The notes below the pieces were generated by a model that saw only the letters and a list, made by a program, of their open reading frames with translations, was not told the origin of the DNA and made no database searches. The position numbers and the translations under genes were made by a program. Shown here piece after piece: positions 1-22,796 of a stretch of DNA of 22,796 nucleotides (positions are counted from its first letter, which is position 1; every line of letters starts with the position of its first letter). Source of the stretch: a virus; UHGV virus genome UHGV-0317022, one strand, 5' to 3'.

Positions 1-1
1 C

Positions 2-5905: not shown

Positions 5906-6376
5906 ATGAAAGTCAGTCAACTCAAAATCATATCTCACAATGATATATTACCTGCTCTTTTAGGAAGAGTGTTCCATGTTACGCCTGAAAATAATATGTC
6001 TCTCATAAAACAGTCCGGCGCTTTGATCCCAAACTCGGAATTATTGCAGATGTCAAGATTTGGAAACTCATCAAATGGTTTTTTCAGACGGCGTAACTGT
6101 GTTTCCTTTTTTGACTACAGATGTTATGGGACTAAGCATTGGGAAGAACATGCCTATAAATGTTTTCCAACTCAGTTTATAAAACATGTGCCTAATGATA
6201 GAATTTCAATACTATTTCTTCATGAAAGCAAATTCGATAAATTGATCCCCTGGACTGCATGGAAAGCAGAAGAGGCATGGAGTGATAGGGTGGTCCCATA
6301 CGTTGAAACTGGATATAAAGGCATAGTCTCCTTAAGTGAGATTACTGAAGAGTTAATTGTTGGGTTTGACTGCTAG
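5906..6376 (+). CDS. Hypothetical protein (156 aa), AT-rich gene
   Basis: Uninterrupted ORF in a visibly AT-rich stretch. No family recognised with confidence; the N-terminal RVFHVTPENNMSLIKQSGAL is only faintly reminiscent of ART/DarT-like N-termini. Confidence 0.5.
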   Translation: MKVSQLKIISHNDILPALLGRVFHVTPENNMSLIKQSGALIPNSELLQMSRFGNSSNGFFRRRNCVSFFDYRCYGTKHWEEHAYKCFPTQFIKHVPNDRISILFLHESKFDKLIPWTAWKAEEAWSDRVVPYVETGYKGIVSLSEITEELIVGFDC

Positions 6377-6480
6377 CAAAGTCAAAAAATCGCTAACGAA
6401 TGCAGAAGGTACCTACTTATGGACCGGTCTTTTATGGTCTGCTTGCCGCTATCTTTAGGCTCATTAAGTGAGACTTTTCG

Positions 6481-7899: not shown

Positions 7900-8203
7900 C
7901 CTGCTTGATTCGCACAGAACGCTGTTAGCAATGTCCGCTCCTCGCTCATAACAGACATTAACTACAGTTATGGTAGAAGGTATGCATGCTGGGTGGGGAA
8001 AGTATGAAGGAAAAGAAGACTGCTGCGCCGTTTGTCGTCACATTTATCTTCATTGGCTATGCAAGTCATAATACAAGGTGGGACAAAACTGAGACACATA
8101 AGGCCTCACAATGGCTTGCAAGGCTTTACATGTTTTGATGTGGTGGGACGTGTGAGCGCAGTGTTGATGGGGTAATACTTTGAATTAGAAGCGGATTCTT
8201 ATA

Positions 8204-8249
8204 ATTCGTAATGCGAAGGTCGTAGGTTCGACTCCTATTATCGGCACCA
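8204..8249 (+). other. Partial tRNA-Thr(CGU) 3' fragment (anticodon loop to CCA), att core of an integrative element; not a complete tRNA
   Basis: ATTCGTAATGCGAAGGTCGTAGGTTCGACTCCTATTATCGGCACCA matches the 3' 46 nt of E. coli thrW-type tRNA as I remember it. The upstream sequence cannot form the acceptor or anticodon 5' strands. Confidence 0.7.
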
Positions 8250-8340
8250 TTCTAACGTCTCCCCAAGTCTACTCAAGTATTTAAAAACCTCTTATAATCC
8301 GCATGTTAGCGCCCCTTTTAGTCTTTTGACGTCTACTTAA

Positions 8341-8413
8341 GTACCCCAAAATCTACAGTCAATTGGGGGTACTTTTAGGGGTATTTGCTGTTCGGTTTAG
8401 TGGAGGTACCCCC
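8341..8413. promoter_or_regulatory. Putative integrase arm-type binding sites / int promoter region
   Basis: GGGGGTAC-type motifs in both orientations: GTACCCCAAAAT (8341-8352), GGGGGTACTTTTAGGGGTAT (8365-8384), GGTACCCCC (8405-8413). A near-identical copy of the 20-mer lies at 22528-22547. Confidence 0.5.
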
Positions 8414-8415
8414 AA

Positions 8416-9630
8416 GTGAAACTCAATGCCCGTCAAATAGACACTGCCAAGCCAAAAGAGAAGGCTTACAAGCTGGCTGATGGTGGTGGTCTGTATCTCC
8501 TGGTAAAACCTAGTGGAGGAAAATACTGGCGCTTTAAATATCGTGTAGCTGGTAAAGAGAAGCTGTTAGCACTAGGTGTGTATCCTGAAGTTACCTTGGC
8601 TGATGCTCGTGCAAAACGTGAAGAAGCTAAAAGGGGTATCGCTGGGGGTATCGATCCGATGGAAGCGAAACGAGAGGAAAAGATTGCCCGGGAAACGCAG
8701 TTAAACAATACCTTCAAAGATATTGCCCTTGAGTGGCACAGCAGCAAATTAAAAAAATGGTCTGCTGGTTATGCTTCAGATATCCTCGAAGCCTTCAACA
8801 AAGATGTGTTCCCTTACATTGGCAAAAAACCAATCGCCGAAATCAAACCACTTGAACTTCTGAATGTGCTGCGACGCATCGAGGGGCGCGGTGCTACAGA
8901 AAAAGCCAAAAAAGTGAGGCAGCGGTGCGGGGAAGTTTTCCGCTATGCAATAGTCACTGGTCGCGCAGAGTATAACCCTGCCCCAGATCTTACTAGCGCG
9001 ATGCAAGGCCATGAATCTAATCATTATCCTTTCCTCACAGCCAAAGAATTGCCTGATTTTTTCAAGGCATTGTCCAGTTACTCAGGAAGTGCATTGGTTG
9101 TTATGGCGGCTCGTCTACTGATTATCACTGGTTTGCGAACTGGCGAACTGCGCGGTGCATTATGGGATGAAATCGATCTCAACAAGGCTATCTGGGAGAT
9201 ACCTGCTTCACGGATGAAAATGCGTCGCCCTCATGTGGTGCCTTTGTCTAAGCAGGCTCTTTCTCTTATTGGGCAGATTAAAGAATTAACTGGTAATTAT
9301 CCGCTTATGTTTCCCGGCCGTAATGATCCAAGGAAAACAATGAGCGAGGCTAGCATAAACCAAGTATTTAAACGCATCGGCTATAACGGAAAGGTTACTG
9401 GTCATGGATTCCGGCACACCATGAGCACGATTTTACATGAGCAGGGCTATAACACCGCGTGGATAGAAACGCAGCTTGCACACGTTGATAAGAACTCAAT
9501 TCGTGGCACGTACAATCATGCGCAATATCTGGACGGGCGGCGCGAGATGCTCCAGTGGTACGCCGACTATATGGATTCGCTCGAACATGGCGGTAACGTG
9601 GTGCATGGCAAGTTCGGAAAATGTGGATGA
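8416..9630 (+). CDS. int: P4-type tyrosine integrase
   Basis: 404 aa with the N-terminus MKLNARQIDTAKPKEKAYKLADGGGLYLLVKPSGGKYWRFKY typical of P4-family integrases. GTG start with GGAGG 9 nt upstream; sits immediately downstream of the tRNA-derived att core. Confidence 0.9.
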   Translation: MKLNARQIDTAKPKEKAYKLADGGGLYLLVKPSGGKYWRFKYRVAGKEKLLALGVYPEVTLADARAKREEAKRGIAGGIDPMEAKREEKIARETQLNNTFKDIALEWHSSKLKKWSAGYASDILEAFNKDVFPYIGKKPIAEIKPLELLNVLRRIEGRGATEKAKKVRQRCGEVFRYAIVTGRAEYNPAPDLTSAMQGHESNHYPFLTAKELPDFFKALSSYSGSALVVMAARLLIITGLRTGELRGALWDEIDLNKAIWEIPASRMKMRRPHVVPLSKQALSLIGQIKELTGNYPLMFPGRNDPRKTMSEASINQVFKRIGYNGKVTGHGFRHTMSTILHEQGYNTAWIETQLAHVDKNSIRGTYNHAQYLDGRREMLQWYADYMDSLEHGGNVVHGKFGKCG

Positions 9631-9758
9631 CTGGTTGCGTATACAGTAGTAGACTTTGAGCGACGAAAGAAAAGGCTGTGTCTAGGGTCGCTCCCGAAAA
9701 TCCGTACACCTCGACGGACTGGTACAGCCACTACAGTAGAGGACGCTGAGGTGTGCGT

Positions 9759-10556
9759 ATGATTGATATTCATGCCGAATTAAACGAATACAAAAAAGAT
9801 TTTATTTCTTTACGTGAATTTCTTGAGGTCGTGCTTAAGGTCGCTGGTGATGATTATGATGTTTCAGATGTCATAACTTGGATACTCAGGAGAATAAGCG
9901 GAGAACATATCCGCCTGTACACAGTAAATGAATTTAAGCTGTTGGAATCTTTTTGTAACCCGTATCGGGATGAATTTGATTATGATGTTCTTTATAGAAA
10001 TCTGAATGCGGTTCGGAAACGTGGTTGTTTACCTGGTGAGAGGGATGAAAATGGTTTTCTGGTGTCCGGTTATTGGGAAGATCCCGAATTTGAGAACATT
10101 GGATTTATAAGGGGTGAAATTTTCGCAATTTTTCCCGATGTCCTTGACGCGTTAACGAAGCTGGAAGGCGCTAACTCTTCTGAAAATGACGAGGCACAAG
10201 GACGCGATATTGAAAAGAAAGAGTTGCGTACAGAGGATGATTTATTATCCCAAATCGCAATGCTGGAAAAAGAAAACGCAGAGTTAAGGGCAAGGATAGA
10301 GCAGTTAGAGCAAGAGCGCCCGATACACTTATATAAATACTGGGATAAAGACCCATTAGCTAAGGCTATTGAGATTAGAAACAGAGAGTGGGCCAATTAC
10401 GATCCAGAAAATGATTTTGCCACTAGGGGAAATCAAGAAGCGATAACCAGGGAGCTTAAGCAGTGGGGGGCAAGTAATGCACTTGCAACGCTCATAGAGA
10501 GGACTGCCTGCCCTATTAACCGAGACAACAGCCAAAAGAACGCAAAGCCGGATTAA
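9759..10556 (+). CDS. Hypothetical acidic coiled-coil protein
   Basis: ORF with GAGG 8 nt upstream of ATG 9759 (the track start at 9753 is a GTG). Contains a charged coiled-coil-like segment LLSQIAMLEKENAELRARIEQLEQE. Confidence 0.55.
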   Translation: MIDIHAELNEYKKDFISLREFLEVVLKVAGDDYDVSDVITWILRRISGEHIRLYTVNEFKLLESFCNPYRDEFDYDVLYRNLNAVRKRGCLPGERDENGFLVSGYWEDPEFENIGFIRGEIFAIFPDVLDALTKLEGANSSENDEAQGRDIEKKELRTEDDLLSQIAMLEKENAELRARIEQLEQERPIHLYKYWDKDPLAKAIEIRNREWANYDPENDFATRGNQEAITRELKQWGASNALATLIERTACPINRDNSQKNAKPD

Positions 10557-10570
10557 CGCACCATACCGCA

Positions 10571-10714
10571 TACCCTGAGGGTGATTTACTGTTACCCTGA
10601 GGGTATTTTTTTATCTTCCCCGTCAATTTTACCATCACCCTTAGGGTAGATTTCCTCCCGATTACCATCACCCTTAGGGTTAATTTCCTTCCGGTAACCA
10701 TTAGGCCTGAGGGT
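10571..10714. promoter_or_regulatory. Cluster of five near-palindromic CCCT(G/T)AGGG sites upstream of alpA
   Basis: TACCCTGAGGGT at 10571-10582 and 10593-10604, CACCCTTAGGGT at 10637-10648 and 10669-10680, GCCTGAGGGT around 10704-10714. The two CACCCTTAGGGT copies sit in a longer direct repeat TACCATCACCCTTAGGGT(A/T).ATTTCC. Confidence 0.55.
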
Positions 10715-10783
10715 ATGAAAATATTCGTTATTTCTGTGCCAGGATTACCTCGTCAAATTGAGTAGACGTTATGAGGTAAATAT

Positions 10784-10981
10784 ATGTCAAATACGCTTAT
10801 TCGTTTAACAGAAGTTCAGCGTAGAACTGGATATAGCAAGGCATGGATTTATCGCCTTATGGGGCAAGGTAAATTTCCTGCATCAGTTAAAATTGGCTCG
10901 CGAGCTATTGCTTTCGTTGAGAGTGAAATTGACGAGTGGATTAATCAGCGTATTGCGGAATCACGCGGAACAGCTACCTGA
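10784..10981 (+). CDS. alpA: AlpA-family transcriptional regulator (excisionase-like HTH)
   Basis: 65 aa: MSNTLIRLTEVQRRTGYSKAWIYRLMGQGKFPASVKIGSRAIAFVESEIDEWI, the characteristic AlpA signature. Confidence 0.85.
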   Translation: MSNTLIRLTEVQRRTGYSKAWIYRLMGQGKFPASVKIGSRAIAFVESEIDEWINQRIAESRGTAT

Positions 10982-11058
10982 TTAAATGGCTACGGGGCTA
11001 TTTCCCCCAGCTATCCACCAGCAAATAAAAGTAACTTAATTCGATAGCAGGAGTTTTT

Positions 11059-11859
11059 ATGAAATTTCCAAAAACGCCCGTACAGGGGCGGGGCTTCGTT
11101 CGGCCTGAAAACCAGAATCTGCAAAATTTCGGCGAAATTATCCCGATTATTTCCGGCGTTATTGGCGGGAGTGAAACCACTATTGTTAGCGCCAGAGCGT
11201 TACATAAGGCGTTAGGTGTAGGGCGCGTTTTCCGTTCGTGGATCAAGGGGCGCATTGAAGAATACGGGTTCACGGAAGGCGTGGATTATGAGGTTGTTGA
11301 ATATTTGAGCCGCCCCGATCCGGTGAGCGCAAAATCTCGCCAGCAAACCGCTCTTGAGTACATCATCACAGTGAACATGGCGAAAGAACTGGCGATGGTC
11401 GAACGTACCGAACAGGGCCGCGCCGTTCGCCAGTACTTTATCAAATGCGAGGAGGAGCTACACAAGGTTGCGCCTGTTCGTTCCGCAGCGTTACGCCGGG
11501 AACTGAAAGCCCGTATCACAGTTGCCAGCTACTTTAAGCCAATGTGTGCCGCGCTGGAGGCGTACCGGGCTGAACTGGGTAAAAACACACTCCAGCACCA
11601 CTACACCACGGAAGCGAACATGCTGGCGCGTATCGTACTGGGTGGCATGACTGCAAAACAGTGGGCACTGGCGAACGGCATTACAGGCGAACCACGCGAC
11701 CACATGAGCACGTTGCAGCTTGAGCACCTTTCTTACCTTGAGCAGAGCAATATCACGCTGATTGAGTTAGGCCAGGACTACCACCAGCGGAAGGCTGAAT
11801 TAATTCGTCTTTCGCAGCGTTGGTTAGCCCGTCGCATGGAGGAAAACAGCCATGTGTAA
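11059..11859 (+). CDS. AntA/AntB-type antirepressor-domain protein
   Basis: N-terminal SARALHKALGVGRVFRSWIKGRIEEYGFTEGVDYEV fits the AntA-domain pattern. AGGAG lies 6 nt before the ATG. Confidence 0.6.
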   Translation: MKFPKTPVQGRGFVRPENQNLQNFGEIIPIISGVIGGSETTIVSARALHKALGVGRVFRSWIKGRIEEYGFTEGVDYEVVEYLSRPDPVSAKSRQQTALEYIITVNMAKELAMVERTEQGRAVRQYFIKCEEELHKVAPVRSAALRRELKARITVASYFKPMCAALEAYRAELGKNTLQHHYTTEANMLARIVLGGMTAKQWALANGITGEPRDHMSTLQLEHLSYLEQSNITLIELGQDYHQRKAELIRLSQRWLARRMEENSHV

Positions 11860-13159
11860 CGCTCTGACCGTTACAAAAAGAGAAAGCGCCCCGTTGCCGG
11901 AGCGCCTTTGTGAACGAATAGCCTACTGCGCCATATTGCTTACTGTCTACGAGGCAGATTATAGCGTTGTGGTCGCACAGAGTGAAGGCGCTGATCACCG
12001 TTACTACAGCACGCCAGAAATGCAGAATATTTTGCTGCAAAATGTCGTTGGTCACACTGTCCGGAAAGCAAAAAATTTTGCTGGTGGCGCGACTGATGCG
12101 ATTTTGTCAGGTCGCCAGGTGCTGATCAATCTGATGTCTGATTTCGTTCTGGATAAAACAAAGGCGACCGCAGAGGGCCGCCAGTGGGAAAGCTACATAC
12201 TTGAACGCATCGCCAACAATGCCAGATTTGCGGCTGGTGGGCAATGTGTCAGCTTTGCACCAATGACTCTATGTTTAACTGAGGGTCATTATGGTGAATA
12301 TGCTGGCTTGCTGGTGGGCTATTCCTGCTCTTTAACATTGCCATGCCGCGATGTTTTCCAGGTATGCGACCCCATTTTTGTGCGCCTGTACTCTTTAAGG
12401 AATTTCTCAAGGATAAACGCACAGGGCGCGAATCTGTTTGACTCATGCTCGTACGCTATCTTTCTGCGCTGTCTTTTCCGTGCCGGTGATGGTGTATTGG
12501 TTGATTCTTTGTTGGTCATGGCGCAGCCCTGTAAAACGATGCACCGTAGTTCCTCACACCACGGCGCTGGTGATGGTTACTCCTGTTCTTTGGCCTTGCG
12601 GCGCTGGCGGTATTCAACTTCTCGCTTTAATGCTGCTGTTACAAACTGCCCTGTACTTTCACCAGGCATTTTTACCGCCTCAACATTGTTCATAACTTCA
12701 TGCGGAACCCTTGCCGCAACTGTTTGTGATTTTGCGTTTACTGCTTTTGTCGCCATGTTGTGTACCCCTTACAAAAAACAAATGCAGTATGCAGGAAAAA
12801 AAATAAGTGTTCAACACTTGACGTGTTTAACACCTGGGCTTAAATTGGTGTTCAACACCTTGTTGATGCAAGGTGCAGAAACGACAACGCCCCGCAGTGG
12901 TGGCACACATGCAGGGCGTCTAACCACCAACGATAGCAAGAGTATCGAGGTAGCTATGAGAAATCATACCACACACCCGCAAGGGCGGGACTCGCACAAC
13001 CTGAATAAATACATCTGGCGTTTTATCGCCCTGAGCACGGCACAACCGCGCGTAATTCACATCGAGGCCACCAGCGAACAGGAAGCACGCCAGCAATCTC
13101 CTGATGGCTGCGTGATGGTATTCGCAGCCCGTATTCGCCAGGAGGTGGAACATGTGTAA
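11852..13159 (+). CDS. Open frame of 435 codons; probably not one protein (N-terminal ~130 aa plausible, middle looks non-coding)
   Basis: The start overlaps the previous stop (ATGTGTAA). The N-terminal ~130 aa look protein-like, but the middle translates as low-complexity C/S/T-rich sequence and crosses an AT-rich promoter/operator region. A possible frameshift or missing stop cannot be resolved here. Confidence 0.3.
   Translation: MCNALTVTKRESAPLPERLCERIAYCAILLTVYEADYSVVVAQSEGADHRYYSTPEMQNILLQNVVGHTVRKAKNFAGGATDAILSGRQVLINLMSDFVLDKTKATAEGRQWESYILERIANNARFAAGGQCVSFAPMTLCLTEGHYGEYAGLLVGYSCSLTLPCRDVFQVCDPIFVRLYSLRNFSRINAQGANLFDSCSYAIFLRCLFRAGDGVLVDSLLVMAQPCKTMHRSSSHHGAGDGYSCSLALRRWRYSTSRFNAAVTNCPVLSPGIFTASTLFITSCGTLAATVCDFAFTAFVAMLCTPYKKQMQYAGKKISVQHLTCLTPGLKLVFNTLLMQGAETTTPRSGGTHAGRLTTNDSKSIEVAMRNHTTHPQGRDSHNLNKYIWRFIALSTAQPRVIHIEATSEQEARQQSPDGCVMVFAARIRQEVEHV
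12319..12519 (-). CDS. Small basic protein (66 aa), possible regulator
   Basis: Minus-strand ORF MTNKESTNTPSPARKRQRRKIAYEHESN...; looks more protein-like than the overlapping plus-strand frame. Confidence 0.3.
   Translation of the reverse strand: MTNKESTNTPSPARKRQRRKIAYEHESNRFAPCAFILEKFLKEYRRTKMGSHTWKTSRHGNVKEQE
12576..12756 (-). pseudogene. Small DNA-binding-like protein gene with an apparent +1 frameshift
   Basis: ATG at 12756-12754 with AAGGGG upstream gives MATKAVNAKSQT, then a stop after 19 codons. The adjacent frame continues VAARVPHEVMNNVEAVKMPGESTGQFVTAALKREVEYRQRRKAKEQE to a stop at 12578-12576. One extra A near 12718 would explain the break. Confidence 0.3.
12805..12860. promoter_or_regulatory. 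Divergent promoter/operator region with three GTGTT(C/T)AACAC sites
   Basis: GTGTTCAACAC (12807-12817), GTGTTTAACAC (12823-12833), GTGTTCAACAC (12848-12858). A sigma70-like -35 TTGACG (12818-12823) and -10 TAAATT (12841-12846) with a 17-bp spacer overlap the sites. Confidence 0.5.
12956..13159 (+). CDS. Small hypothetical protein (67 aa), first gene of a coupled small-gene operon
   Basis: GAGG 5 nt upstream of ATG 12956; MRNHTTHPQGRDSHNLNKYIWRFIAL... Lies downstream of the promoter/operator region. Confidence 0.45.
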   Translation: MRNHTTHPQGRDSHNLNKYIWRFIALSTAQPRVIHIEATSEQEARQQSPDGCVMVFAARIRQEVEHV

Positions 13160-13376
13160 TGCAACATGGCCTGATGCAGCGGTAGACGCTATCAAAACGC
13201 TGATGGATTCACTTATTGAGATTTCTGCTATCGCTGGTGTGGCGCATAAACACGCAGCCAGAGAATCAGAATGCATCTCCCATTATTTAGCATTTGTGCA
13301 GCTAAAAGCCGATCAGGCACTGGATAAGGCCGGAAAAATTATCATGGCTGATGTGCAGGAGGTGCACCATGCATAA
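13152..13376 (+). CDS. Small hypothetical protein (74 aa)
   Basis: Start overlaps the previous stop (ATGTGTAA); compact phage-like gene packing. Confidence 0.45.
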   Translation: MCNATWPDAAVDAIKTLMDSLIEISAIAGVAHKHAARESECISHYLAFVQLKADQALDKAGKIIMADVQEVHHA

Positions 13377-13734
13377 CCTGTCAATTTCTGACCTTAACAG
13401 CATTCAGTTTGACGAGAAATTTACCGGGCAGTTGCTGGTCAATGTGGAGAACGGGCGCATAGTGCGTAATTACCACCTGCCGGATGGTGCAATTGCCGGA
13501 AGCGTTGAAGCATTGCTGGAACTGGCGGAACGTGCGCGACTGATTAAGCCGTCAACGAGCCATCACGATGATGATCTGCATTTTACCGGGCGTATGGTGA
13601 GTCACTACGAAAACGGCGTTGAAGTATCCCGCGAACGGCTGCGTGATGATTGCTGTTTCGGCACACTGCCGGAATTTATCGAGTTGCTGACCAGTTGCGG
13701 TTATCAGGTCATTCAGGGGGGTAAACATGCGTGA
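13369..13734 (+). CDS. Small hypothetical protein (~121 aa)
   Basis: ATG 13369 preceded by GGAGGTG; overlaps the previous stop (ATGCATAA). The track start at 13351 is upstream of this likely start. Confidence 0.45.
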   Translation: MHNLSISDLNSIQFDEKFTGQLLVNVENGRIVRNYHLPDGAIAGSVEALLELAERARLIKPSTSHHDDDLHFTGRMVSHYENGVEVSRERLRDDCCFGTLPEFIELLTSCGYQVIQGGKHA

Positions 13735-13960
13735 TGATCGTTTTAATTCCCTGAAACGGGAATTTGATGGCGCACCGGAAGATGCAGCGGGCGCATTGTT
13801 GAGCGTTGCTGACATGATGAAAGCTGCATATTTTCTTATCAATACCAGTGGCTACAAGTCAGAGGGTGAAATGATTCTTAGTATTGCGTCGGACTATGCG
13901 GAATATGTGGCAGAGACGCGTTACAGAAGAAAATTCACGGAGGATGTAAGCCATGCATAA
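13727..13960 (+). CDS. Small hypothetical protein (77 aa)
   Basis: Start overlaps the previous stop; acidic protein. Confidence 0.45.
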   Translation: MRDDRFNSLKREFDGAPEDAAGALLSVADMMKAAYFLINTSGYKSEGEMILSIASDYAEYVAETRYRRKFTEDVSHA

Positions 13961-14153
13961 TCATGAAGCGCATGTACCCGTAGTGCTTAATGTGCCAGAT
14001 GATTTCACCGGACGCGTACTGGTTTACCTGGATAAAGGGAAAGTGAAATCACAATGCCGACTGAAAAGTAATGAGATTGTTGGTTCTCCTGAATTTTTTT
14101 CTGAACTTTGTATTCGTGCGGAAATAAAACCGGAACTGCTGACAGGAAAATAA
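13953..14153 (+). CDS. Small hypothetical protein (66 aa)
   Basis: GGAGGATG upstream; start overlaps the previous stop. Confidence 0.45.
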   Translation: MHNHEAHVPVVLNVPDDFTGRVLVYLDKGKVKSQCRLKSNEIVGSPEFFSELCIRAEIKPELLTGK

Positions 14154-14157
14154 AACC

Positions 14158-14448
14158 ATGAAAAAGAAAAATTCTGGCTTTACTGCCAGCGGCCTCTCTC
14201 GGCCTGAAATCCGCCCCGGTGATATTTCCCGGGACACCAGACGCGGGGGACGGGTGGTTATTCGTCACGTTACGCCAGGCAATATCACCTACCGCCGTGA
14301 GGCTTACGAATATGACTGCGTAATGCCGCGCCGTCAGTTTGATCGTGATTTTATTCTGGTGGAAAACAAACAACAGGCAGTGGCGAGACGTGCAGCCACG
14401 AATATTAAAAAAATCCGGGCAATGTTGGTTGCGGGAGGTAAGAAGTGA
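14158..14448 (+). CDS. Small basic hypothetical protein (96 aa)
   Basis: ORF immediately preceding the primase gene; its stop overlaps the primase GTG start (GTGA). Confidence 0.45.
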   Translation: MKKKNSGFTASGLSRPEIRPGDISRDTRRGGRVVIRHVTPGNITYRREAYEYDCVMPRRQFDRDFILVENKQQAVARRAATNIKKIRAMLVAGGKK

Positions 14449-16250
14449 AAAACGCACCGAGTCTAAAATATCAGCCGAAGGATAAATTCACTGAGGTAAT
14501 CATTTTTGCCGGGACGGATGCTTACGCCCATGCTCAACACTGGATTGAAAGTGAAGGACGAAAACACGGCGATAACGTGCCTCCTGTTTACCTGGGGCCA
14601 AAGCAACTGGCAGACCTGGCGAATATCCGCATTATTGACGAGAAACGCCGTTTTGCGCGTGTCTATATCGCGGGGGAGATAGAGCCAATCCAGATCAATA
14701 CTATCGCTGAAAAGCTGGCGCTGGCTGGCGTACAGGAGGCGAAATTATACAAAGGTATCACCGACCAGGAACCGGAGAACTGGCGCGACTACCTGCAACG
14801 GATCCGCGAACAGGCTGAGCACGGGGAAGTTTCAGTGATGAAATTAGCTACAAAAAATAGTGGTCTACCCAAGCCTGCATTAAATCAGATGGGAGCCAGC
14901 CAGAGAGGGGAAGTGTTACTTGAACATTATGGAGGAGCACTGGCGATAAATGATGATTCTGATGTAGTTCACCATTACAACGGAATTGTTTGGGAGCCTG
15001 TATCTGATAAGGAACTCCAGCGGTCTATGGCGAAGATTTTTATTGATGCCGAAATTAGTTATTCGCAAAACGCCATTAAATTTGCCGTAGAGACAATGAA
15101 ATTGAGTCTACCTGTTATGGGGGGAGCGGACAGAAATCTTATTGGGTTCAGTAACGGTGTTTTTGATATCAGGACAGGAAATTTTCGGGAACACAACAAA
15201 AATGACTGGTTGTTAAATGCCAGTGAATTACCGTTCAGCCCGCCAGAAGAGGGGGAAACGCTGGCAACACATGCGCCGAATTTCTGGAAGTGGTTGCGTC
15301 GTTCGGTGGCGGATAATGCTCGTAAAGCGGATCGCGTACTGGCGGCATTATTCATGGTACTGGCGAACCGGTACGACTGGCAGTTATTCCTTGAGGTAAC
15401 GGGGCCGGGCGGAAGCGGTAAAAGTGTGATGGCGGAGATTTGTACCATGCTGGCGGGTAAGGCCAACACAGTATCGGCAAGCATGAAGGCTCTGGAAGAC
15501 GCAAGGGAACGCGCGTTAGTAGTTGGCTTTTCGCTGATTATCATGCCGGATATGACTCGCTACGCTGGCGATGGTGCAGGAATTAAGGCAATTACTGGCG
15601 GCGACAAGGTGGCAATTGATCCGAAACATAAAGCCCCCTACTCCACACGTATTCCGGCAGTAGTGCTTGCGGTAAACAATAACGCCATGTCATTCAGTGA
15701 CCGAAGCGGGGGGATCTCGCGTCGTAGGGTGATATTTAATTTCTCTGAGGTCGTACCGGAGAACGAACGCGATCCCATGCTGGCGGAAAAGATAGAAGGC
15801 GAACTGGCGGTAGTGATTCGCCATTTGCTAACACGATTTACCGACCAGGACGAAGCTAAAAGACTACTTTATGAGCAGCAAAAATCAGAAGAAGCGCTGT
15901 TGATAAAGCGCGAAGGTGATTCACTGGTGGACTTTTGCGGCTATCTGATGTCGTTGGTTAAATGTGAAGGAATGATGGTGGGCAATGCGGAAATAGTGCC
16001 ATTTAGCCCGAGGCGATACCTGTATCATGCTTATTTAGCCTATATGTCAGCGCATGGCCTGGGAAAACCAGTATCACTGACACGCTTTGGTACTGATATG
16101 CCAGGAGCTATGGCGGAATACGGAAAGGAGTATAAGCGGGCTAAATGCACTAAAGGCCCGGATAAAGGGCGAGTGATAACAAATGTTCTGTTAGATGATG
16201 ATGCTGATGGCTGGTTGCCAGCAGCTACAGGGATTAACGACAGAACATAA
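14445..16250 (+). CDS. Replication primase-helicase (P4 alpha / D5-like, SF3-type NTPase)
   Basis: 601 aa with Walker A VTGPGGSGKSVMAEI and a Walker B-like hhhhPD segment. GGGAGG 6 nt before the GTG start; followed directly by an iteron-containing origin, as in P4/PICI replication modules. Confidence 0.85.
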   Translation: MKNAPSLKYQPKDKFTEVIIFAGTDAYAHAQHWIESEGRKHGDNVPPVYLGPKQLADLANIRIIDEKRRFARVYIAGEIEPIQINTIAEKLALAGVQEAKLYKGITDQEPENWRDYLQRIREQAEHGEVSVMKLATKNSGLPKPALNQMGASQRGEVLLEHYGGALAINDDSDVVHHYNGIVWEPVSDKELQRSMAKIFIDAEISYSQNAIKFAVETMKLSLPVMGGADRNLIGFSNGVFDIRTGNFREHNKNDWLLNASELPFSPPEEGETLATHAPNFWKWLRRSVADNARKADRVLAALFMVLANRYDWQLFLEVTGPGGSGKSVMAEICTMLAGKANTVSASMKALEDARERALVVGFSLIIMPDMTRYAGDGAGIKAITGGDKVAIDPKHKAPYSTRIPAVVLAVNNNAMSFSDRSGGISRRRVIFNFSEVVPENERDPMLAEKIEGELAVVIRHLLTRFTDQDEAKRLLYEQQKSEEALLIKREGDSLVDFCGYLMSLVKCEGMMVGNAEIVPFSPRRYLYHAYLAYMSAHGLGKPVSLTRFGTDMPGAMAEYGKEYKRAKCTKGPDKGRVITNVLLDDDADGWLPAATGINDRT

Positions 16251-16277
16251 TACGAAATTTATAAGCTGAAACGTAAA

Positions 16278-16613
16278 GGTAGACGGTTGGTAGACAGATA
16301 CACTTAACCCTCTACCAACCATCTACTAATTAATGTTTTGAATTATATAGGTATTTTTAATGTGGTAGAGAGGTGGACAGTTTATTTTATATTTCTAAAC
16401 CACGGGGGGGTATATAAAAACAGATAGTTATGGGTTCATTTTTAAAATTTTTATTTTAACTATCTACACTGTCTACTATTTATTAAAAATCATTAATTAT
16501 CAATGTATTAATACGGTAGACAGTTGGTGGACAGTTTGCAGATTGTTTTTTTGTTATATGTTAATAACATTAAATAAATCAATCAATTATATCGGTAGGC
16601 AGTTGGTAGACAG
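16278..16613. repeat. Iteron-type replication origin
   Basis: At least five copies of GGTAGACAGTTGGT(A/G)GACAG-like 20-mers in both orientations (16278-16297, 16311-16327 inverted, 16363-16380, 16461-16478 inverted, 16514-16533, 16594-16613), separated by AT-rich spacers, directly downstream of the primase-helicase gene. Confidence 0.7.
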
Positions 16614-16621
16614 TTGTAACG

Positions 16622-17164
16622 ATGGGGCAAAGCATGACAAAGCTGACCATTAACAGAAAACCGAAAGGCATTTACGGCACGCCGCAGAAAACGATGCAGG
16701 CGGCGCAGCAGCAGGATAAAACCACATCGGCATATAAAGTGATGCCCGGTAACCAGAACGCGCAACAGAAGCCCACAGGGGCGACACCGTGGCGGCATAT
16801 GACCAAACGCCAGCGCAAAAACCGCAGACGCGTTAACCGCCTCACTGAGTTATGGCCAGAATTATTCAGCCGGGAAGCACCGAAGCCGCTTAAGGTGGGG
16901 ATATTCGACGACCTGCTGCAGGATCTCGCCGTCAGGGGGCTGGCATTCGCTCTAGGGGCATTGCGTGCGACGCTGGCATCTTATGCACAGTGTCCGCGCT
17001 ATTACCGCGCCTTAATGGCTGGTGGGGTACGCTACGACCTGAAAGGCCAGCCGTGCGGCGAGGTGACACCACAGGAACAACAGGACGCAGAAACGCGGCT
17101 GGTGGCGCTGAATGAGAAGCGCAAACGTCAGCGCCGGGCAGCAAAGGAGAAAACAGGCGCATGA
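16622..17164 (+). CDS. FinO/ProQ-domain RNA-binding protein
   Basis: LTELWPELFSREAPKPLKVGIFDDLLQDL ... RYDLKGQPCGEVTPQEQ parallels the E. coli ProQ N-terminal domain (PLKIGIFQDL ... RVDLDGNPCGELDEQH) as I remember it. Confidence 0.7.
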   Translation: MGQSMTKLTINRKPKGIYGTPQKTMQAAQQQDKTTSAYKVMPGNQNAQQKPTGATPWRHMTKRQRKNRRRVNRLTELWPELFSREAPKPLKVGIFDDLLQDLAVRGLAFALGALRATLASYAQCPRYYRALMAGGVRYDLKGQPCGEVTPQEQQDAETRLVALNEKRKRQRRAAKEKTGA

Positions 17165-17448
17165 TTCACGACAGTAAAGCCGAAGCACTGGAAGCGCGTG
17201 GTCTGTACCGGAGAGCGGCGGCGCGGTGGGCTGAGGTCATTATGCTGGCGAACGGTGACAAGGCACGGGAACAGGCGGCAAAACGTCGAGCGGAATGTAT
17301 CCACAAGGCAGCACGCCCGCCAGTAAGGCAGGATAATTTCGGGGAGATGCGCGACACCATCAGCCGGGCACATGCCGGGATGGGATTACATCAGCCCAAT
17401 GGTGAGGCATTCAGGAAATACCCTGGATCGAAAAATTGCAATCAGTGA
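17161..17448 (+). CDS. PerC/Pch-family transcriptional regulator-like protein
   Basis: 95 aa starting MIHDSKAEALEARGLYRRAAARWAEVIM, which resembles the PerC/Pch N-terminal signature from memory. Start overlaps the previous stop (ATGA). Confidence 0.55.
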   Translation: MIHDSKAEALEARGLYRRAAARWAEVIMLANGDKAREQAAKRRAECIHKAARPPVRQDNFGEMRDTISRAHAGMGLHQPNGEAFRKYPGSKNCNQ

Positions 17449-17649
17449 CGGAGGCCGGGATTTTTCCCGGCTTTTTTGTGCCAGTAAAAAGCCCGCAGCC
17501 AGAAGTGTTGCGGGCTTTGTTTTTCAGGTGATTGAAGTCAATGGGAAGAACGCGATCATCATGCGTTATCGTTTCATAAATTGCAATGATATAGATCGTC
17601 ATTTCAGTTTATGCAATCATAACCATTGTTTTGTTCAGGAGGTATGACT

Positions 17650-17823
17650 ATGAGAAAAGCCAGCGTGAAACCCGTTTTACTCGCTCGTGATCAGATTGAA
17701 GCATTACAGCGCATCCAGGACGAGGAACGCCGCAATTCTCCGCTGGGGATTGCTCCGAGTATTCATGAGGTCGCCCGACGTTTAATGCAGCGGGCGCTTT
17801 ATCCCGTAGAACGTCCGGCCTGA
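17650..17823 (+). CDS. Small hypothetical protein (57 aa)
   Basis: AGGAGG 7 nt upstream of ATG 17650 (MRKASVKPVLLARDQIEALQRIQDEERR...). The track ORF starts earlier, at 17626. Confidence 0.45.
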   Translation: MRKASVKPVLLARDQIEALQRIQDEERRNSPLGIAPSIHEVARRLMQRALYPVERPA

Positions 17824-17862
17824 TGGTCGTGATTTTTTGGTGAAAAAAGAGAGGTAGTAACA

Positions 17863-18447
17863 ATGCCAGCAAGCAAAGAAGATTTGCGATTAAAACTGAT
17901 GGAGGTGGTTAACGCTCTGTCAGAGTCGCAGGGCAGCACTCCGCAGGAGATTATCGAAATGCTGAATGCGATCCCCGCGCAGGATTTCACAAAAGCGGAC
18001 GAGGATAACGCTAATCAAAACATCGTCGCGTCAGTCGAAGATGAATCCTCACTGGCAGAAGCCCAGGCTAAAGCGGATTCCGCATACAGCAATATGGGCC
18101 GTCGCGCTCCGGCCCCGTTTGCTGGCGAAAAGTCGATGGATTACCGCAAGCGCGCATTAATTGGCGCACAGAGGATAGCGAAAAAATTCAGAGATGTGGA
18201 TATTCGTTCCGTTTCAGATTCTGCAACGCTGGCGGTGCTGGAAGATCAGATTTACAAGGCTGCTCAGGAAAGTGCTCAGTGGGCCGTGGAAAACACGCCG
18301 GGCCATTTGGGTAAAACCGTAAGAATGGATGAAGCTGGTCGTCGTATTACTGAATATCAGGGCGATCCGAACGTCTGGCTGAACGCCTTCAAAATCCCTC
18401 CCCGTCGCCTGGTCAAAATTAACGTTGCAAGCCTCTCGGGGGCATGA
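17863..18447 (+). CDS. Hypothetical protein (194 aa), possibly capsid/packaging-associated
   Basis: GAGAGG upstream of the ATG; no family recognised. Its position between the regulators and the TerS-like gene suggests a morphogenesis or interference role, but that is inference only. Confidence 0.55.
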   Translation: MPASKEDLRLKLMEVVNALSESQGSTPQEIIEMLNAIPAQDFTKADEDNANQNIVASVEDESSLAEAQAKADSAYSNMGRRAPAPFAGEKSMDYRKRALIGAQRIAKKFRDVDIRSVSDSATLAVLEDQIYKAAQESAQWAVENTPGHLGKTVRMDEAGRRITEYQGDPNVWLNAFKIPPRRLVKINVASLSGA

Positions 18448-18511
18448 AAAACGTGCTGATTTCAGCCCTGTCGGATTTGGCGGGGCTTATTTCTTATAAC
18501 CGGATAACATT

Positions 18512-19183
18512 ATGCTTTTAACAGAAATTGAGGCTGCAAAGCAAATTCGGGACGGTCAGCTACCGTCGCCTTATCAGTTTTCCAACATGTGGCTGGTTAA
18601 CCTGCGTATTACAGGAACCGGTATGGCCTACCGCGCCGAAGAAAAAGAATTTGTCTGGCGTTCACCGCAAACTTATCTCAATCCGCAGTTCCTGGAACGT
18701 TGCGCCGGAGTACCCGTCATCATCGACCATCCCGAAAGCAAAACCCTTGAAGACGTGGGCGAACGGTCGCGCATTATTGGCACCGTCATGTTGCCGTATA
18801 TTCGCGGTGACGAGGTGTGGGGCGTATGCCGGATTTACGGGCAGGAAATCATCGATTACATCCAGAAAGCCCGGGGGGAGGTATCCACCAGCCCGTCGGT
18901 TGTGTTTTGTGGTGCGTCCGGTGGGGCAGAAGTTCCTGATGTAATGGGCGAGGACAATTTTTTTATTGAGGGTACACCATTTCTTATCGATCACGTTGCC
19001 CTCGTACCGTTGGGCGTATGGGATAAGGACGGGAAACCATCGGGTGTGGAGGTAACAACGCCGACAGCAGAAGAGCAGCTTGCCGGAATGGTCCGGGACG
19101 TTATTGATGCAGCCTGCAAGCCAGCTCTGGAAAAACTGGAAGAAATATCCGGGCGGCTGGCTCAACTGGAAAAAGAAGGGTGA
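18512..19183 (+). CDS. Hypothetical protein (223 aa)
   Basis: Uninterrupted ORF in operon context with the downstream HTH protein; no motif recognised. Confidence 0.55.
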   Translation: MLLTEIEAAKQIRDGQLPSPYQFSNMWLVNLRITGTGMAYRAEEKEFVWRSPQTYLNPQFLERCAGVPVIIDHPESKTLEDVGERSRIIGTVMLPYIRGDEVWGVCRIYGQEIIDYIQKARGEVSTSPSVVFCGASGGAEVPDVMGEDNFFIEGTPFLIDHVALVPLGVWDKDGKPSGVEVTTPTAEEQLAGMVRDVIDAACKPALEKLEEISGRLAQLEKEG

Positions 19184-19189
19184 GTCATA

Positions 19190-19717
19190 ATGCTGATGAG
19201 TAAGGCAGAATATGCCAAACACAAAGGCGTAAGCCGCCAGACAGTTTACGACTGGATCGAGAAAGGCGAAGTGATCATGTCTGGCAAAAAAATTGATGTG
19301 GAAGCGACAGAGCAGCGGAACAGCCCACCAGCACAGGGGAAAGACACCATTTCTGAAATGTGGCCAGAAAGAACGCTGGAAATGACGTGGGGCGAGTTCT
19401 GGAAAGCAGTTAAGGCCAGAGGCGGTAAAATTCCTGCGCCAGCAACGGACGAGGGCATACAGCAGCGTGTGCTGGATGCAGCCGGGGAATTAGGCTGGGA
19501 AGTGCACTTTCTTGATGATGGTGCTATCTGCCTTGAGGATGATGAAGGGCAGCATTACTTTGAAAAATACAATTTGCGAGGTAATGCCAGGCTGGCAATT
19601 CGTATGCTGCGTTGCGAACTCTGCTATGTTGCAGGTGATTATGCCGATGAACTGGAATCATGGAGTGAAGCCGGGCTAAACGCCCTAGCTGAATGGGAAA
19701 AATCAGACCATCAATGA
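19190..19717 (+). CDS. Nu1/TerS-like winged-HTH protein, candidate packaging-redirection factor
   Basis: N-terminus MSKAEYAKHKGVSRQTVYDWIEKGEV resembles the DNA-binding N-terminus of small terminase subunits. A repeat cluster follows immediately downstream. Confidence 0.55.
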   Translation: MLMSKAEYAKHKGVSRQTVYDWIEKGEVIMSGKKIDVEATEQRNSPPAQGKDTISEMWPERTLEMTWGEFWKAVKARGGKIPAPATDEGIQQRVLDAAGELGWEVHFLDDGAICLEDDEGQHYFEKYNLRGNARLAIRMLRCELCYVAGDYADELESWSEAGLNALAEWEKSDHQ

Positions 19718-19722
19718 CATCA

Positions 19723-19945
19723 AAAAGTGTCAAGTTGAGCAGCTTGCCAGGTTGACACTTTACACTCTGAACGCGAAAAAGTGTCAACCTCGCTGTAAGC
19801 CGCGCCATTACTGGCCTTTCGCCAGATTTACCACGTCAAAAAGCCGAAAAAATCGCGAAAAGTGTCAAGTTGCCATGCTTAGAAATGCCAGGGGAGGTTA
19901 AGTTTTGTTAAGGTTTTTCCCGAAAAAGTGTCAAGTGTGTCAACC
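19723..19945. repeat. AAAAGTGTCAA(G/C) repeat cluster, candidate packaging-recognition or operator sites
   Basis: AAAAGTGTCAAGTTG at 19723-19737 and 19857-19871, an inverted TTGACACTT at 19752-19760, AAAAAGTGTCAACC at 19776-19789, and AAAAAGTGTCAAGTGTGTCAACC at 19923-19945. Confidence 0.6.
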
Positions 19946-20320
19946 CGCGATATACAGATTTATTAAGGTTTTGAGCCAGAAAGAGTTAACCGCGCCGCTT
20001 TAGAAAACTTCAGGCACGCATTTGTGAAAGCATCAAATGAAGTTCTGTCATACTTTGCAAATCATGCAGATGCATCGTTACTGAGCATTTTAAGTTACAG
20101 TTGATGCGGACTGTCCACTTTAACCTTTCAAAACGTTTCGTAGTAGGTACTAACTAGAATGCCAAGAGTCTTTCAGGTTCCGTGATGTTTAGCGTTGGAT
20201 TTGATATTAAGTGTTTAAATTCAATGTGTTACATTGTGTTATAAAGTTTATTGCTAACAACTGTAGGGTAGATGCCAAGCGCACGCTAAGCATGTTATAA
20301 TCATTTCAACTTTCATAATA

Positions 20321-21316
20321 ATGGATACGAGAGTGGCGACGATAATCAAAAATATAGCAATCAAAGGTCTTTTTAAACGGAAGGACATTGATTGGAGTTT
20401 AAAAGATGTGAATGTTTTAGTGGGTAAAAATGGCTCAGGTAAGAGCACGATAATTCAAAGTGTTTTTGCCCTCTTAAAACAAGAATTAAATGAAAGTTTA
20501 AGTAATGCTGCGTTGGCTCAAATAACATTGGCCAATGGAGGCACAATTACTCACAAAGTTAATTTTCGCGAAATTGACTCTGTCCAGCTTCTAAACCTAC
20601 TTAATAACCTTAAGAAAAACAGTATTAAAGGTAAATCAAAGGGTAAGGAAATAAAGGAGTTAAATGAACTTATTGAGTTGCTTGAATCGAAAAAAGAAGA
20701 CACTGAAATTAAAGAGTTCGGGATGGGAACTGTTAGCGTAAGTGATAATATTAAAAACACTAAGCGAATAAATGTTGAGTTAATATCAACTATCAATATG
20801 AGTGCCAATTCCATCTATGAATTCAAAAAAAGTGATGGTGAGCGCACCACAATTCTTGATATGGAAATTGCTGGTGAATTAGAAAGGTTAAAGAATACTT
20901 TCAAAGTAAGTGAGTCTAAAGGTATTCTCATAAAGGATAAGTTGGAATCAGCTATAAATAATTTATTTGCTGAATGTAACAAAGTTGTTTCTTTTAGTAA
21001 TGGTAACATTTCTATTAAGATGAGTGATTCTGGTGAAGATATTAGGTATAATCTTCTTTCATCAGGTGAACGTCAGTTGTTATATATTCTGATTAAAACA
21101 GCTAATACTTCATTGGATGAATCTGTCTTGTTGATGGATGAGCCAGAAATATCCTTGCACCTTACGTGGCAAGAAAGATTAATAAGCACCATCAAATCAA
21201 TTAACGATAATTGTCAGTTAATTATTGTTACTCATAGTCCTGCAATATTAATGAAAGGCTGGATGGATTCTTTCGTAGATATAAAAAATATTTCAAAGGA
21301 ATCTTCTCATGACTGA
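20321..21316 (+). CDS. ABC-type ATPase (AAA_21/AAA_15-like), ATPase component of a two-gene OLD/PARIS/AbiL-like cassette
   Basis: Walker A VGKNGSGKST, ABC signature-like LSSGERQLLYIL, Walker B LLMDEPEISLH, H-loop VTHSP. The gene is visibly AT-rich and its stop overlaps the start of the downstream TOPRIM-like gene. Confidence 0.8.
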   Translation: MDTRVATIIKNIAIKGLFKRKDIDWSLKDVNVLVGKNGSGKSTIIQSVFALLKQELNESLSNAALAQITLANGGTITHKVNFREIDSVQLLNLLNNLKKNSIKGKSKGKEIKELNELIELLESKKEDTEIKEFGMGTVSVSDNIKNTKRINVELISTINMSANSIYEFKKSDGERTTILDMEIAGELERLKNTFKVSESKGILIKDKLESAINNLFAECNKVVSFSNGNISIKMSDSGEDIRYNLLSSGERQLLYILIKTANTSLDESVLLMDEPEISLHLTWQERLISTIKSINDNCQLIIVTHSPAILMKGWMDSFVDIKNISKESSHD

Positions 21317-22289
21317 GTTTGAGGATATTAATTTTAGCGAAGAATATCTTCAGGTATATTGTATTATGGCTGGACACAATGGCTTTGTCTTTGTTGAAGG
21401 TCTAAAAGACATTTCTTTCTGGGAAGGCTTATTAAACGATAAAGATAATGATATACGTTTTGATATTTGTAACCCTACCAATAAAGGAACAAAAGGGAAA
21501 CCAGTATTAAAAAAATTCATGAGCCGAGCAAATCGATATGCCATATTTGCAATGGATAGTGATTTTGATTATTTATGCCCTAAAAACAGTACAGACTCAG
21601 AGATAATTTGCAGTAACAAGTTTATTTTTCAAACATTTGTATATTCAAAAGAGAGCATCGAGTTACACCATGAAGTCCTTGAGTATTGTCTTTCTCAAAT
21701 AAAGATCGCTACTGAAATTAAATTCGATTTTACAGCATACATTACAGAGTATTCACGGTTGATCTACCCCGTGCTGAAGAAATTTTTATTGCTTAAACAG
21801 CATCAAGTTAGACTTGATGACTCAGTTTTCCATGAAGCGATTGCTCCTTCTGTGCCACGATTAACGAACCAATTTGTTATCAAAAATGCTGTATTTGAAA
21901 GTATGCAGCAATCTAAAGCGGTTATTGAAGAAAAACTTGATAACCTTATTCAAGATGAATACGATGCTGATAAATTCTATGAGCAGTTATATGATAAAGG
22001 ATTGAGAGAAGATAACGCCTATCAATATATCAATGGTCATTTTTTAGCTGATAGAGTTGTCATGCCTGTCATAAAATCATTGATAGAGCAATTGAATATT
22101 AATGAAACTGCCTTAATAGTCAAACAATGCAAAGATAAACCAACCTTAATCTCGGAAAGAAAGAGTGAGCTAAAAAATATTCTTGAAACTGATTTGAATA
22201 TTAATACGCTATTACACTGTTGCAAAGAAAAGTTCAAAACTCCTTGTGCTATTGCGATCAAAGAAAATGTAGCTCGAGCTTTAGCATGA
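21309..22289 (+). CDS. TOPRIM-like (DUF4435-like) putative nuclease, partner of the ABC ATPase
   Basis: N-terminal FVFVEGLKDISFWEGLL (TOPRIM E-G-x-x-D glutamate motif) and AIFAMDSDFDY (DxD motif). AAGGAA 8 nt upstream of the ATG; 8-nt overlap with the ATPase stop (ATGACTGA). Confidence 0.7.
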   Translation: MTEFEDINFSEEYLQVYCIMAGHNGFVFVEGLKDISFWEGLLNDKDNDIRFDICNPTNKGTKGKPVLKKFMSRANRYAIFAMDSDFDYLCPKNSTDSEIICSNKFIFQTFVYSKESIELHHEVLEYCLSQIKIATEIKFDFTAYITEYSRLIYPVLKKFLLLKQHQVRLDDSVFHEAIAPSVPRLTNQFVIKNAVFESMQQSKAVIEEKLDNLIQDEYDADKFYEQLYDKGLREDNAYQYINGHFLADRVVMPVIKSLIEQLNINETALIVKQCKDKPTLISERKSELKNILETDLNINTLLHCCKEKFKTPCAIAIKENVARALA

Positions 22290-22300: not shown

Positions 22301-22329
22301 AAAAAACCTCATGCCCTTGGGGTTTTTTT
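22301..22329 (+). terminator. Possible weak terminator after the ATPase/TOPRIM cassette
   Basis: AAAAAACC...GGTTTTTTT inverted repeat flanking CCCTTGGGG. The stem is AU-rich, so this is uncertain. Confidence 0.3.
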
Positions 22330-22527
22330 GCTAATTAATTCTGTTCTAACAGAAGGTTATGATAAAACTTTTAAACTGTAGAAATAGAAAACATGACATG
22401 GCCTTCAATAAATTGAAATTTTATTCGTTTGGATATCTTTCTTAATTGACAAAGTGAATGAAGACATAAAGCTCTTAAATGAATAGCTTTTATGTTTTTC
22501 CCAGAGTCTAATCATACAGGCGCTTAT

Positions 22528-22547
22528 GGGGGTACTTTTGGGGGTAT
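22528..22547. repeat. Terminal repeat, right copy of the putative integrase arm site
   Basis: GGGGGTACTTTTGGGGGTAT differs at one position from GGGGGTACTTTTAGGGGTAT at 8365-8384. Confidence 0.55.
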
Positions 22548-22605: not shown

Positions 22606-22625
22606 TTCCTATTATCGCACCATTT
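22606..22625 (+). other. Imperfect copy of the tRNA-Thr 3' end (putative attR core of the satellite island)
   Basis: TTCCTATTATCGCACCATTT versus CTCCTATTATCGGCACCATT at 8232-8251: same 3'-terminal tRNA segment with one deleted G and one substitution. Confidence 0.45.
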
Positions 22626-22636
22626 AAATCAATAAG

Positions 22637-22796
22637 TTACACATCATTAGTACCTTCCTTATTTTTTGACTGGGACAAATTTGGGACCGATGGGTTCAGG
22701 ATCGAGTCTATTTGCCGTGCGTGTTCGGTAAGGTGATTAGGTGCAAGGTGAGCATATCGACGAACCATTTCGATAGACTCCCAGCCTCCCATTTCC
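22637..22796 (-). CDS. Tyrosine integrase, C-terminal fragment (gene continues beyond the window)
   Basis: Minus-strand translation ...[52 protein letters not shown]-stop. The GGWE...[10 protein letters not shown] segment is the typical C-terminus of phage integrases near the catalytic Tyr. Confidence 0.6.

Follow-up and report, generated by a model that had tools for sequence, protein, structure and literature searches.

A coupled ATPase–TOPRIM gene pair

The window analysed here is the whole 22,796-nt stretch of the virus genome UHGV-0317022, and the subject of the analysis is a cassette of two genes, ariA and ariB, located at positions 20321-22289 near one attachment (att) site of an integrated island (Table 1). 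An earlier note, made from the sequence alone, had described the cassette as an AT-rich, translationally coupled pair encoding an unusually compact ATP-binding cassette (ABC) ATPase and a TOPRIM-like protein, and had put it forward as a candidate anti-phage system, perhaps an undescribed minimal variant, on a P4-like satellite. We consider it probable that the cassette is a PARIS (AriA/AriB) abortive-infection system from a clade with compact ATPases, carried as the attR-end cargo of a 14.4-kb island that is inserted at tRNA-Thr and resembles the phage-inducible chromosomal islands (PICI).

Both open reading frames (ORFs), of 331 and 326 aa, are present as described in the earlier note. They overlap by 8 nt (ATGACTGA), and the junction has the form AAGGAA-N8-ATGACTGA, the Shine-Dalgarno-like AAGGAA being situated 8 nt 5' of the ariB ATG. 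For ariA, the GTG at 20333, which is the RefSeq start (327 aa) and agrees better with the family N-terminal consensus MxxxIK, is more likely to be the start codon than the ATG at 20321. The difference in base composition noticed earlier also holds, the GC content being 32.6% in the cassette vs 48.4% in the remainder of the island (8233-19950); two ORFs of more than 320 codons are not expected by chance in DNA of 33% GC.

The best promoter-like sequence of the region is situated 20-32 nt 5' of the possible ariA starts; since the total number of such sites in the region is not above that in shuffled sequences, it is a candidate only. The terminator-like hairpin past ariB gives a weak or marginal signal (RNA fold -11.7 kcal/mol, z = -1.8), and it was not called in a consensus terminator scan.

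The DNA of the window is that of E. coli. Among 5426 complete E. coli genomes, 20 contain the cassette at 99.9-100% identity; strain 55989 and the O104:H4 outbreak lineage are among them, and there the two genes carry only the RefSeq labels 'AAA family ATPase' and 'DUF4435 domain-containing protein'. A pseudogene or a decayed remnant was ruled out by the intact ORFs, the invariant catalytic residues and the 100% conservation across lineages.

The natural reference for residue-level comparison is PARIS of E. coli B185, which resides on a P4-like satellite (Rousset 2022, PMC9122126; Burman 2024, PMC11464382; PDB 8UX9, 8V45-8V49); as the B185-type reference we used a genuine P4-like satellite locus, L009 (delta, psu, AriA of 464 aa, AriB of 308 aa, int). 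The ATPase motifs named in the earlier note are all in place, namely Walker A (GKNGSGKS at residue 35), the signature (LSSGE, 246), Walker B (LLMDEPE, 270) and the H-loop (THS, 304), and all four are invariant in 51 homologues. The spacing of the signature, Walker B and H-loop is the same as in B185 AriA within one residue, and E274 of Walker B corresponds to B185 E393.

In the partner, the E-G-x-x-D and DxD motifs pointed out earlier are found as E30-G-L-K-D34 and D83-S-D85-F-D87, together with S113-K-E115. Residues E30, D34, D83, D85 and E115 are invariant in 76 homologues (20-35% identity) and correspond, with comparable spacing, to E26, D30, D88, E90 and E122 of B185 AriB, the residues of its two-metal TOPRIM site (PMC11464382). 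Two further conserved motifs, G63-K64 and G243-H244, match B185 K60/K64 and R236-G237-H238, which contact tRNA in the published AlphaFold 3 model (PMC12409363).

Assignment to PARIS and distance from the B185 system

The published MacSyFinder rule for PARIS (PMC9122126) calls for an ATPase scoring at least 32 bits with AAA_15 or at least 27 bits with AAA_21, adjacent to a protein scoring at least 27 bits with DUF4435. In the window, the ATPase scored 74.5 bits with AAA_21 and 71.1 bits with AAA_15, its partner scored 62.6 bits with DUF4435, and the genes overlap; the pair is thus PARIS by this rule. In PADLOC, the best model for the ATPase was AriA (PDLC04164, 2.6e-43, 146 bits), the next family being PtuA (9e-26, 89 bits), and the partner matched AriB models only (PDLC04165, 3.6e-22; PDLC02983, 4.9e-17) and no other family. 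As the Pfam and PADLOC E-values for the cassette range from 1e-17 to 1e-43, these matches are not due to chance.

Structure points in the same direction. The closest PDB match to the ATPase by sequence was AriA (8v45/8ux9, 4e-17), and for its predicted model (pLDDT 84.8) the top 15 Foldseek matches in PDB were all AriA chains (8V45, 8V46, 8V47, 8V48, 8V49, 8UX9; E from 8e-14 to 1.6e-10), followed by PtuA, retron ATPases and Rad50. The best match of the AriB model (pTM 0.82) was AriB 8v46_D (prob 0.95). Hence, as far as predicted models can tell, the folds of both subunits match those of the solved PARIS subunits. The Pfam rule, PADLOC and Foldseek agree on an ABC ATPase with a DUF4435/TOPRIM partner of the PARIS family, and the profile searches that the earlier note had suggested (AAA_15, AAA_21, DUF4435 and defence-system models) all returned matches, with AriA and AriB the best.

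In NCBIfam, no specific family was found for either protein, the only matches being sub-threshold ones to PtuA, retron and MAD3 models. Direct sequence comparison of the window AriB with the solved AriB was non-significant by phmmer, with a 15-sequence profile, with a 76-sequence profile and by hhalign against B185 AriB; in the hhalign comparison the 76-sequence profile was aligned with the correct E-G-x-x-D motif at a probability of 2%. Thus, the link between the two AriB proteins rests on the shared family models, the fold and the motif spacing. We conclude that the cassette is an intact, uncharacterised member of the already described PARIS family, that is, a correct detection of a known system.

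Like B185 PARIS, the window cassette is an overlapping two-gene operon with the ABC ATPase preceding the DUF4435/TOPRIM protein, it retains all ATPase motifs and the same TOPRIM acidic set with similar spacing, it finds in the PARIS subunits the best structural matches for both proteins, and it is carried beside the att site of a phage-satellite-type island. Unlike in B185, the host island is PICI-like and located at tRNA-Thr rather than P4-like, and AriA is considerably shorter, 327/331 aa (36.5-37.0 kDa) vs 464 aa (53.3 kDa), which bears out the remark in the earlier note that the described ATPases, at about 53 kDa, are much larger.

The difference in length is concentrated in one part of the protein. 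Between Walker A and the signature lie 120 of the approximately 133 missing residues, and from the Q-loop to the signature there are ~90 aa in the window AriA vs ~168 in B185. In B185 AriA, the insert IS1 (residues 122-180) is implicated in trigger sensing, while IS2 (242-289) enlarges the coiled coil to a bundle, its aromatic face F230/F234/F238/Y304 joining dimers into a D3 hexamer (PMC11464382). In the model of the window AriA, the IS1 position is occupied by a shorter two-helix hairpin (H87-102 and H108-123) and the region between the Q-loop and the signature by a single two-helix hairpin (H178-196 and H198-219). B185 residues 200-234, 257-278 and 293-315 align to gaps in the window protein; the alignment of individual residues cannot be relied upon in the insert region, in contrast to the secondary structure and the arithmetic of lengths. 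A B185-type IS2 coiled-coil bundle with its aromatic contacts was not found, this being a feature of the archetype that lies outside the detection rule. As the IS2 expansion is missing, the stoichiometry and the trigger of the compact AriA probably differ from those of B185. Clear homology between the two AriA proteins is confined to the Walker A region and the C-terminal lobe.

On the family models, the window proteins score above those of B185: 146 vs 110 bits for AriA (PDLC04164) and 61 vs 35 bits for AriB (PDLC02983), and B185 AriB does not match Pfam DUF4435 at E <= 1e-3. Thus, by profile score, B185 is the outlier and the window cassette is nearer to the centre of the family.

Several points weigh against our reading of the cassette as a PARIS abortive-infection system. 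The model and the alignment suggest that the window AriA lacks the IS2 hexamerisation module and the F230/F234/F238/Y304 contacts; hence the sequestration geometry, the trigger and the RNA target could all differ from those of B185. The B185 salt-bridge residues are mostly not kept, AriB R28/R31 being replaced by L32/I35 (with K33 nearby) and AriA D401 by T282; the sole interface residue kept is the conserved AriA E285, equivalent to B185 E404. The identity between the window AriB and B185 AriB is 9%, which weakens a detailed transfer of the mechanism. The promoter and the terminator are consensus-level candidates, and a literature search yielded no experimental study of any member of the short-AriA clade.

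The short-AriA clade, the host island and its defence slot

The earlier suggestion of an undescribed minimal variant has to be abandoned: the short form is a large, widespread subfamily, and existing PARIS models score the window pair above the B185 archetype. A search with the ATPase gave 2892 database matches (E <= 1e-5); the best 120 of these are full-length proteins of 306-362 aa, with the exception of three partial ones of ~200-210 aa, and originate from Enterobacteriaceae, Acinetobacter, Shewanella, Gluconobacter and others. With the partner as query, 702 clusters at 50% identity were obtained (E <= 1e-3); of the 150 that were listed, almost all have a length of 310-367 aa. Relatives are encoded in 467 species genomes.

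The pairing is usually retained as well. In a sample of 80 loci ranging from Gammaproteobacteria to Bacteroidota, 76 have an ATPase of 272-363 aa and, next on the same strand, a gene of the AriB subfamily; the two genes usually overlap or are at most ~20 nt apart. Partners from Acinetobacter and from an E. coli plasmid-like contig, 27% identical to the window AriB, are below the Pfam threshold and match the PADLOC AriB models. One compact AriA homologue, from Shewanella xiamenensis (L003 5001-7582, 42% identity), has no partner ORF within 1.6 kb downstream; thus orphan or degraded copies exist, and the pairing is not universal.

In metagenome-assembled genomes of Bacteroidales/Bacteroidaceae (L029-L089, ATPase at ~6001-6822), an AriA of ~273 aa is adjacent to an AriB-like gene of 331-354 aa; this AriA is devoid of the first helical hairpin (residues ~75-147 of the window protein). 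Hence, with Bacteroidales homologues of ~273 aa, the short AriA of the window is not minimal. PARIS-1 of E. coli O42 and the P2-hotspot PARIS (system 149 of Table S5 in Rousset 2022) belong to the same family by the published rule and, like the window cassette, occupy prophage or satellite hotspots; the P2-hotspot ATPase also has the same order of Pfam signatures (AAA_21, AAA_15, SMC_N). Their AriA proteins are longer than that of the window, at least 469 aa in O42 and ~396 aa in the P2 hotspot. Thus, the sizes of AriA form a series around a constant core (464, ~396, 327/331 and ~273 aa).

Burman et al. 2024 distinguished 11 PARIS clades with poorly conserved pore residues, their trees being built from DefenseFinder hits in RefSeq complete genomes, and in Rousset 2022 (PMC9122126) only the O42 and B185 systems were tested experimentally. 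Induction was required for the O42 system. The short-AriA branch of PARIS is widespread but unstudied.

The att cores at 8233 and 22607 define an island of 14.4 kb, in which the cassette ends 318 nt from attR, in accordance with the att-proximal location proposed earlier; homology to the 55989-type island stops at 22632-22640. The backbone comprises int and genes for an AlpA-like helix-turn-helix (HTH) protein, AntA-like and Icd-like proteins, a primase, ProQ/FinO, PerC, a DUF2213 protein and a terS-like protein. The traits of a PICI-like element are present, namely an integrase near att, an AlpA regulator, a primase-replicase, packaging-related genes and flanking att direct repeats. No match to the P4 hallmarks Sid, Delta and Psu, taken from L009, was found in the window by tblastn at E <= 0.01, and the only L009 proteins with a match were the integrase (37.5% identity) and the AlpA-like HTH protein. 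Thus, the element is PICI-like and not P4-like, as it had been called in the earlier note. A literature search for PICI in combination with PARIS returned nothing specific.

The backbone is shared with sister islands up to ~19950-19990 and then diverges, the match to E. coli EC11 ending at 19991 and that to strain 98202 at 19948. In EC11, the slot held by PARIS in the window contains a 580-aa ATPase-TOPRIM nuclease of the P2-Old type (L090 21391-23133; PADLOC Old, 2e-62). Hence the slot is a defence hotspot, at which fused and split relatives of one superfamily alternate. Of the earlier proposal of a defence hotspot on a P4-like satellite, the variable att-proximal hotspot stands and the P4-like host does not.

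In strain 98202, the slot contains two adjacent genes for hypothetical proteins of 275 and 259 aa (L091 24845-25672 and 25673-26452), with no convincing PADLOC match. They are a candidate uncharacterised defence pair, and possibly a more novel one than the PARIS cassette of the window.

Table 1. Features of the cassette and its host island (window coordinates)
Feature	Position	Strand	Description
attL core TCCTATTATCGGCACCA	8233..8249	+	3' end of partial tRNA-Thr copy (8206-8249); identical to tRNA-Thr 3' end of E. coli 55989
Integrase	8416-9630		
AlpA-like HTH	10796-10957		
Primase	14445-16250		
DUF2213/protease-like gene	18512-19183		
terS-like HTH gene	19190-19717		
AT-rich leader and backbone/cargo boundary	19951..20320	.	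36.5% GC; differently loaded sister islands lose homology at ~19950-19990
Promoter-like candidate	20272..20301	+	-35 ATGCCA, 18-nt spacer, TG-extended -10 TATAAT; 10/12 consensus matches, best in region
ariA	20321..21316	+	Compact ABC-ATPase, predicted sensor subunit; 331 aa (ATG 20321) or 327 aa (GTG 20333)
ariA/ariB translational-coupling junction	21296..21316	+	AAGGAA, then ariB ATG (21309) overlapping ariA TGA (21314-21316); read from sequence
ariB	21309..22289	+	DUF4435/TOPRIM, predicted nuclease effector subunit, 326 aa
Terminator-like hairpin	22301..22329	+	11-bp stem AAAAAACCUCA/UGGGGUUUUUU and U-tract, 12 nt past ariB stop
attR core TCCTATTATCGCACCA	22607..22622	+	Direct repeat of attL with one base deleted; right boundary of island

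Several repeats are located within the island. A 21-nt direct repeat, TGGGGGTACTTTT(A/G)GGGGTAT, occurs at 8364-8384 and 22527-22547 (20 of 21 positions identical), ~60-115 nt inside each att core, and probably marks arm-type binding sites of the integrase. The 20-nt repeat GGTAGACGGTTGGTAGACAG is present three times (90-100% identity) at 16278-16613, just downstream of the primase gene; these copies are candidates for iterons at the island's replication origin. The stretch 10571-10694, upstream of the AlpA-like HTH gene, contains two tandem copies of a 33-nt repeat (88% identity) and a pair of 17-nt repeats and may be regulatory. In the spacer past the terS-like gene, within the conserved backbone, five copies of AAAAGTGTCAA (four on the plus strand, one on the minus strand) are situated at 19723-19934; this number was reached in 0 of 100 shuffles, and the copies could be iterons, a packaging site or binding sites of a regulator.

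Two neighbouring ORFs, 17863-18447 and 18512-19183, both match phrog_6216, with different parts and in reversed order. The latter, a DUF2213 gene according to the annotation of a sister island, bears a weak resemblance to a head-maturation protease, which hints that the island encodes capsid-related functions.

The tRNA-Thr locus is a tandem array, in which prophage tail-fibre genes (230-2850), a GIY-YIG gene on the minus strand (2920-3744) and the tRNA-Thr copy (8206-8249) precede the island. At its other end, 14 nt past the attR core, starts the C-terminus of a different integrase, encoded on the minus strand (22637-22796). Given these neighbours (1-8249 and 22637-22796), the island is flanked by two other integrated elements, which could act as helpers.

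Proposed mechanism, alternatives and implications

B185 PARIS causes abortive infection that requires both genes and their catalytic residues; phage proteins, for example Ocr, act as its triggers, and AriB, once released, cleaves tRNA. For the window cassette, family membership, the coupling of the genes, the intact catalytic residues, the pairing across phyla and the hotspot location are directly established, while sequestration and release, the trigger and the substrate are carried over from B185 (PMC9122126, PMC11464382). By this analogy, head-to-tail dimers of the 36.5-37-kDa AriA would hold the 38-kDa TOPRIM nuclease AriB inactive. A phage protein would bind the variable helical inserts of AriA and, together with ATP binding and hydrolysis, lead to the release of AriB; the latter would then dimerise and cut one or several host tRNAs as a two-metal TOPRIM ribonuclease, so that translation would stop and the infection abort.

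A further possibility, which we regard as tentative and on balance doubtful, is that the compact clade represents a minimal PARIS unable to build the propeller-shaped AriA hexamer, a Rad50-like AriA dimer being associated with one or two AriB molecules and other phage proteins being sensed via the short hairpins. If this were true, the AriA size series (464 > ~396 > 327/331 > ~273 aa) would mean that, around an unchanging release switch of ATPase and nuclease, the inserts can be swapped as modules for sensing and assembly.

Other explanations differ in what the pair would act upon or in what it would be for. It is unlikely that the effector of a PARIS-related pair acts on DNA in the way classically described for OLD or Gabija nucleases, nicking or degrading phage or host DNA instead of tRNA. 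The OLD family (class 1, P2 Old; class 2, Gabija GajA) also combines an ABC ATPase with a TOPRIM nuclease in abortive phage defence; in Old and GajA, however, the two are fused, whereas the window pair is split into two genes, no GajB helicase neighbours the cassette, and in PADLOC the Old and GajA models are not among the top matches, their scores being far below that of AriA. We consider it very unlikely that the cassette is mainly an addiction or stabilisation module of the toxin-antitoxin type, keeping the island in the chromosome and having no role in phage defence. Pfam does describe AAA_21 as 'putative AbiEii toxin, Type IV TA system', the cassette lies at the edge of a mobile island, and a nuclease restrained by its partner formally resembles a toxin-antitoxin pair. 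Yet for B185 PARIS a toxin-antitoxin system was excluded, since deletion of either gene had no toxic effect and defence was lost (PMC9122126); moreover, the content of the slot changes from island to island, other defence genes such as Old taking the place of PARIS, and the ATPase/AriB pair is found also outside islands in many phyla.

That the cassette in fact belongs to another family of ATPase and nuclease pairs (for instance Septu PtuAB, AbiL, MADS or a retron effector pair) and bears the name PARIS wrongly seems extremely improbable. The ATPase does match the PADLOC models of PtuA (9e-26), mad3 (1e-23) and NsnB, PtuA and retron ATPases are its next-best structural matches, and PtuA of Septu and retrons is a related AAA_15/21 ATPase that likewise forms a complex with a nuclease. 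However, the AriA score is ~57 bits above that of the next family, and the partner matches only AriB/DUF4435 models, with no HNH, RloB or reverse-transcriptase signal, unlike PtuB, which is an HNH nuclease. Neither a reverse transcriptase nor a helicase nor other MADS genes adjoin the cassette, and msr-msd is not present. Membership in Septu, AbiL, MADS, Gabija and OLD was rejected on the Pfam and PADLOC results.

The assignment of the cassette to PARIS leaves the known kinds of defence systems unchanged. It does mean that a PARIS system is present, hidden under generic RefSeq labels, in E. coli 55989 and the O104:H4 outbreak lineage, and that a second type of satellite-like island, PICI-like and located at tRNA-Thr, has a defence hotspot comparable to that of P4. 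Mechanistic work on PARIS has so far rested on one AriA of 464 aa. The question of real interest is how a PARIS system without IS2 assembles and what triggers it. The short clade, which by profile score represents the family better and is devoid of the hexamer insert, offers for these reasons a natural means of testing how general the individual elements of the mechanism are (hexameric sequestration, the range of triggers, the tRNA target).

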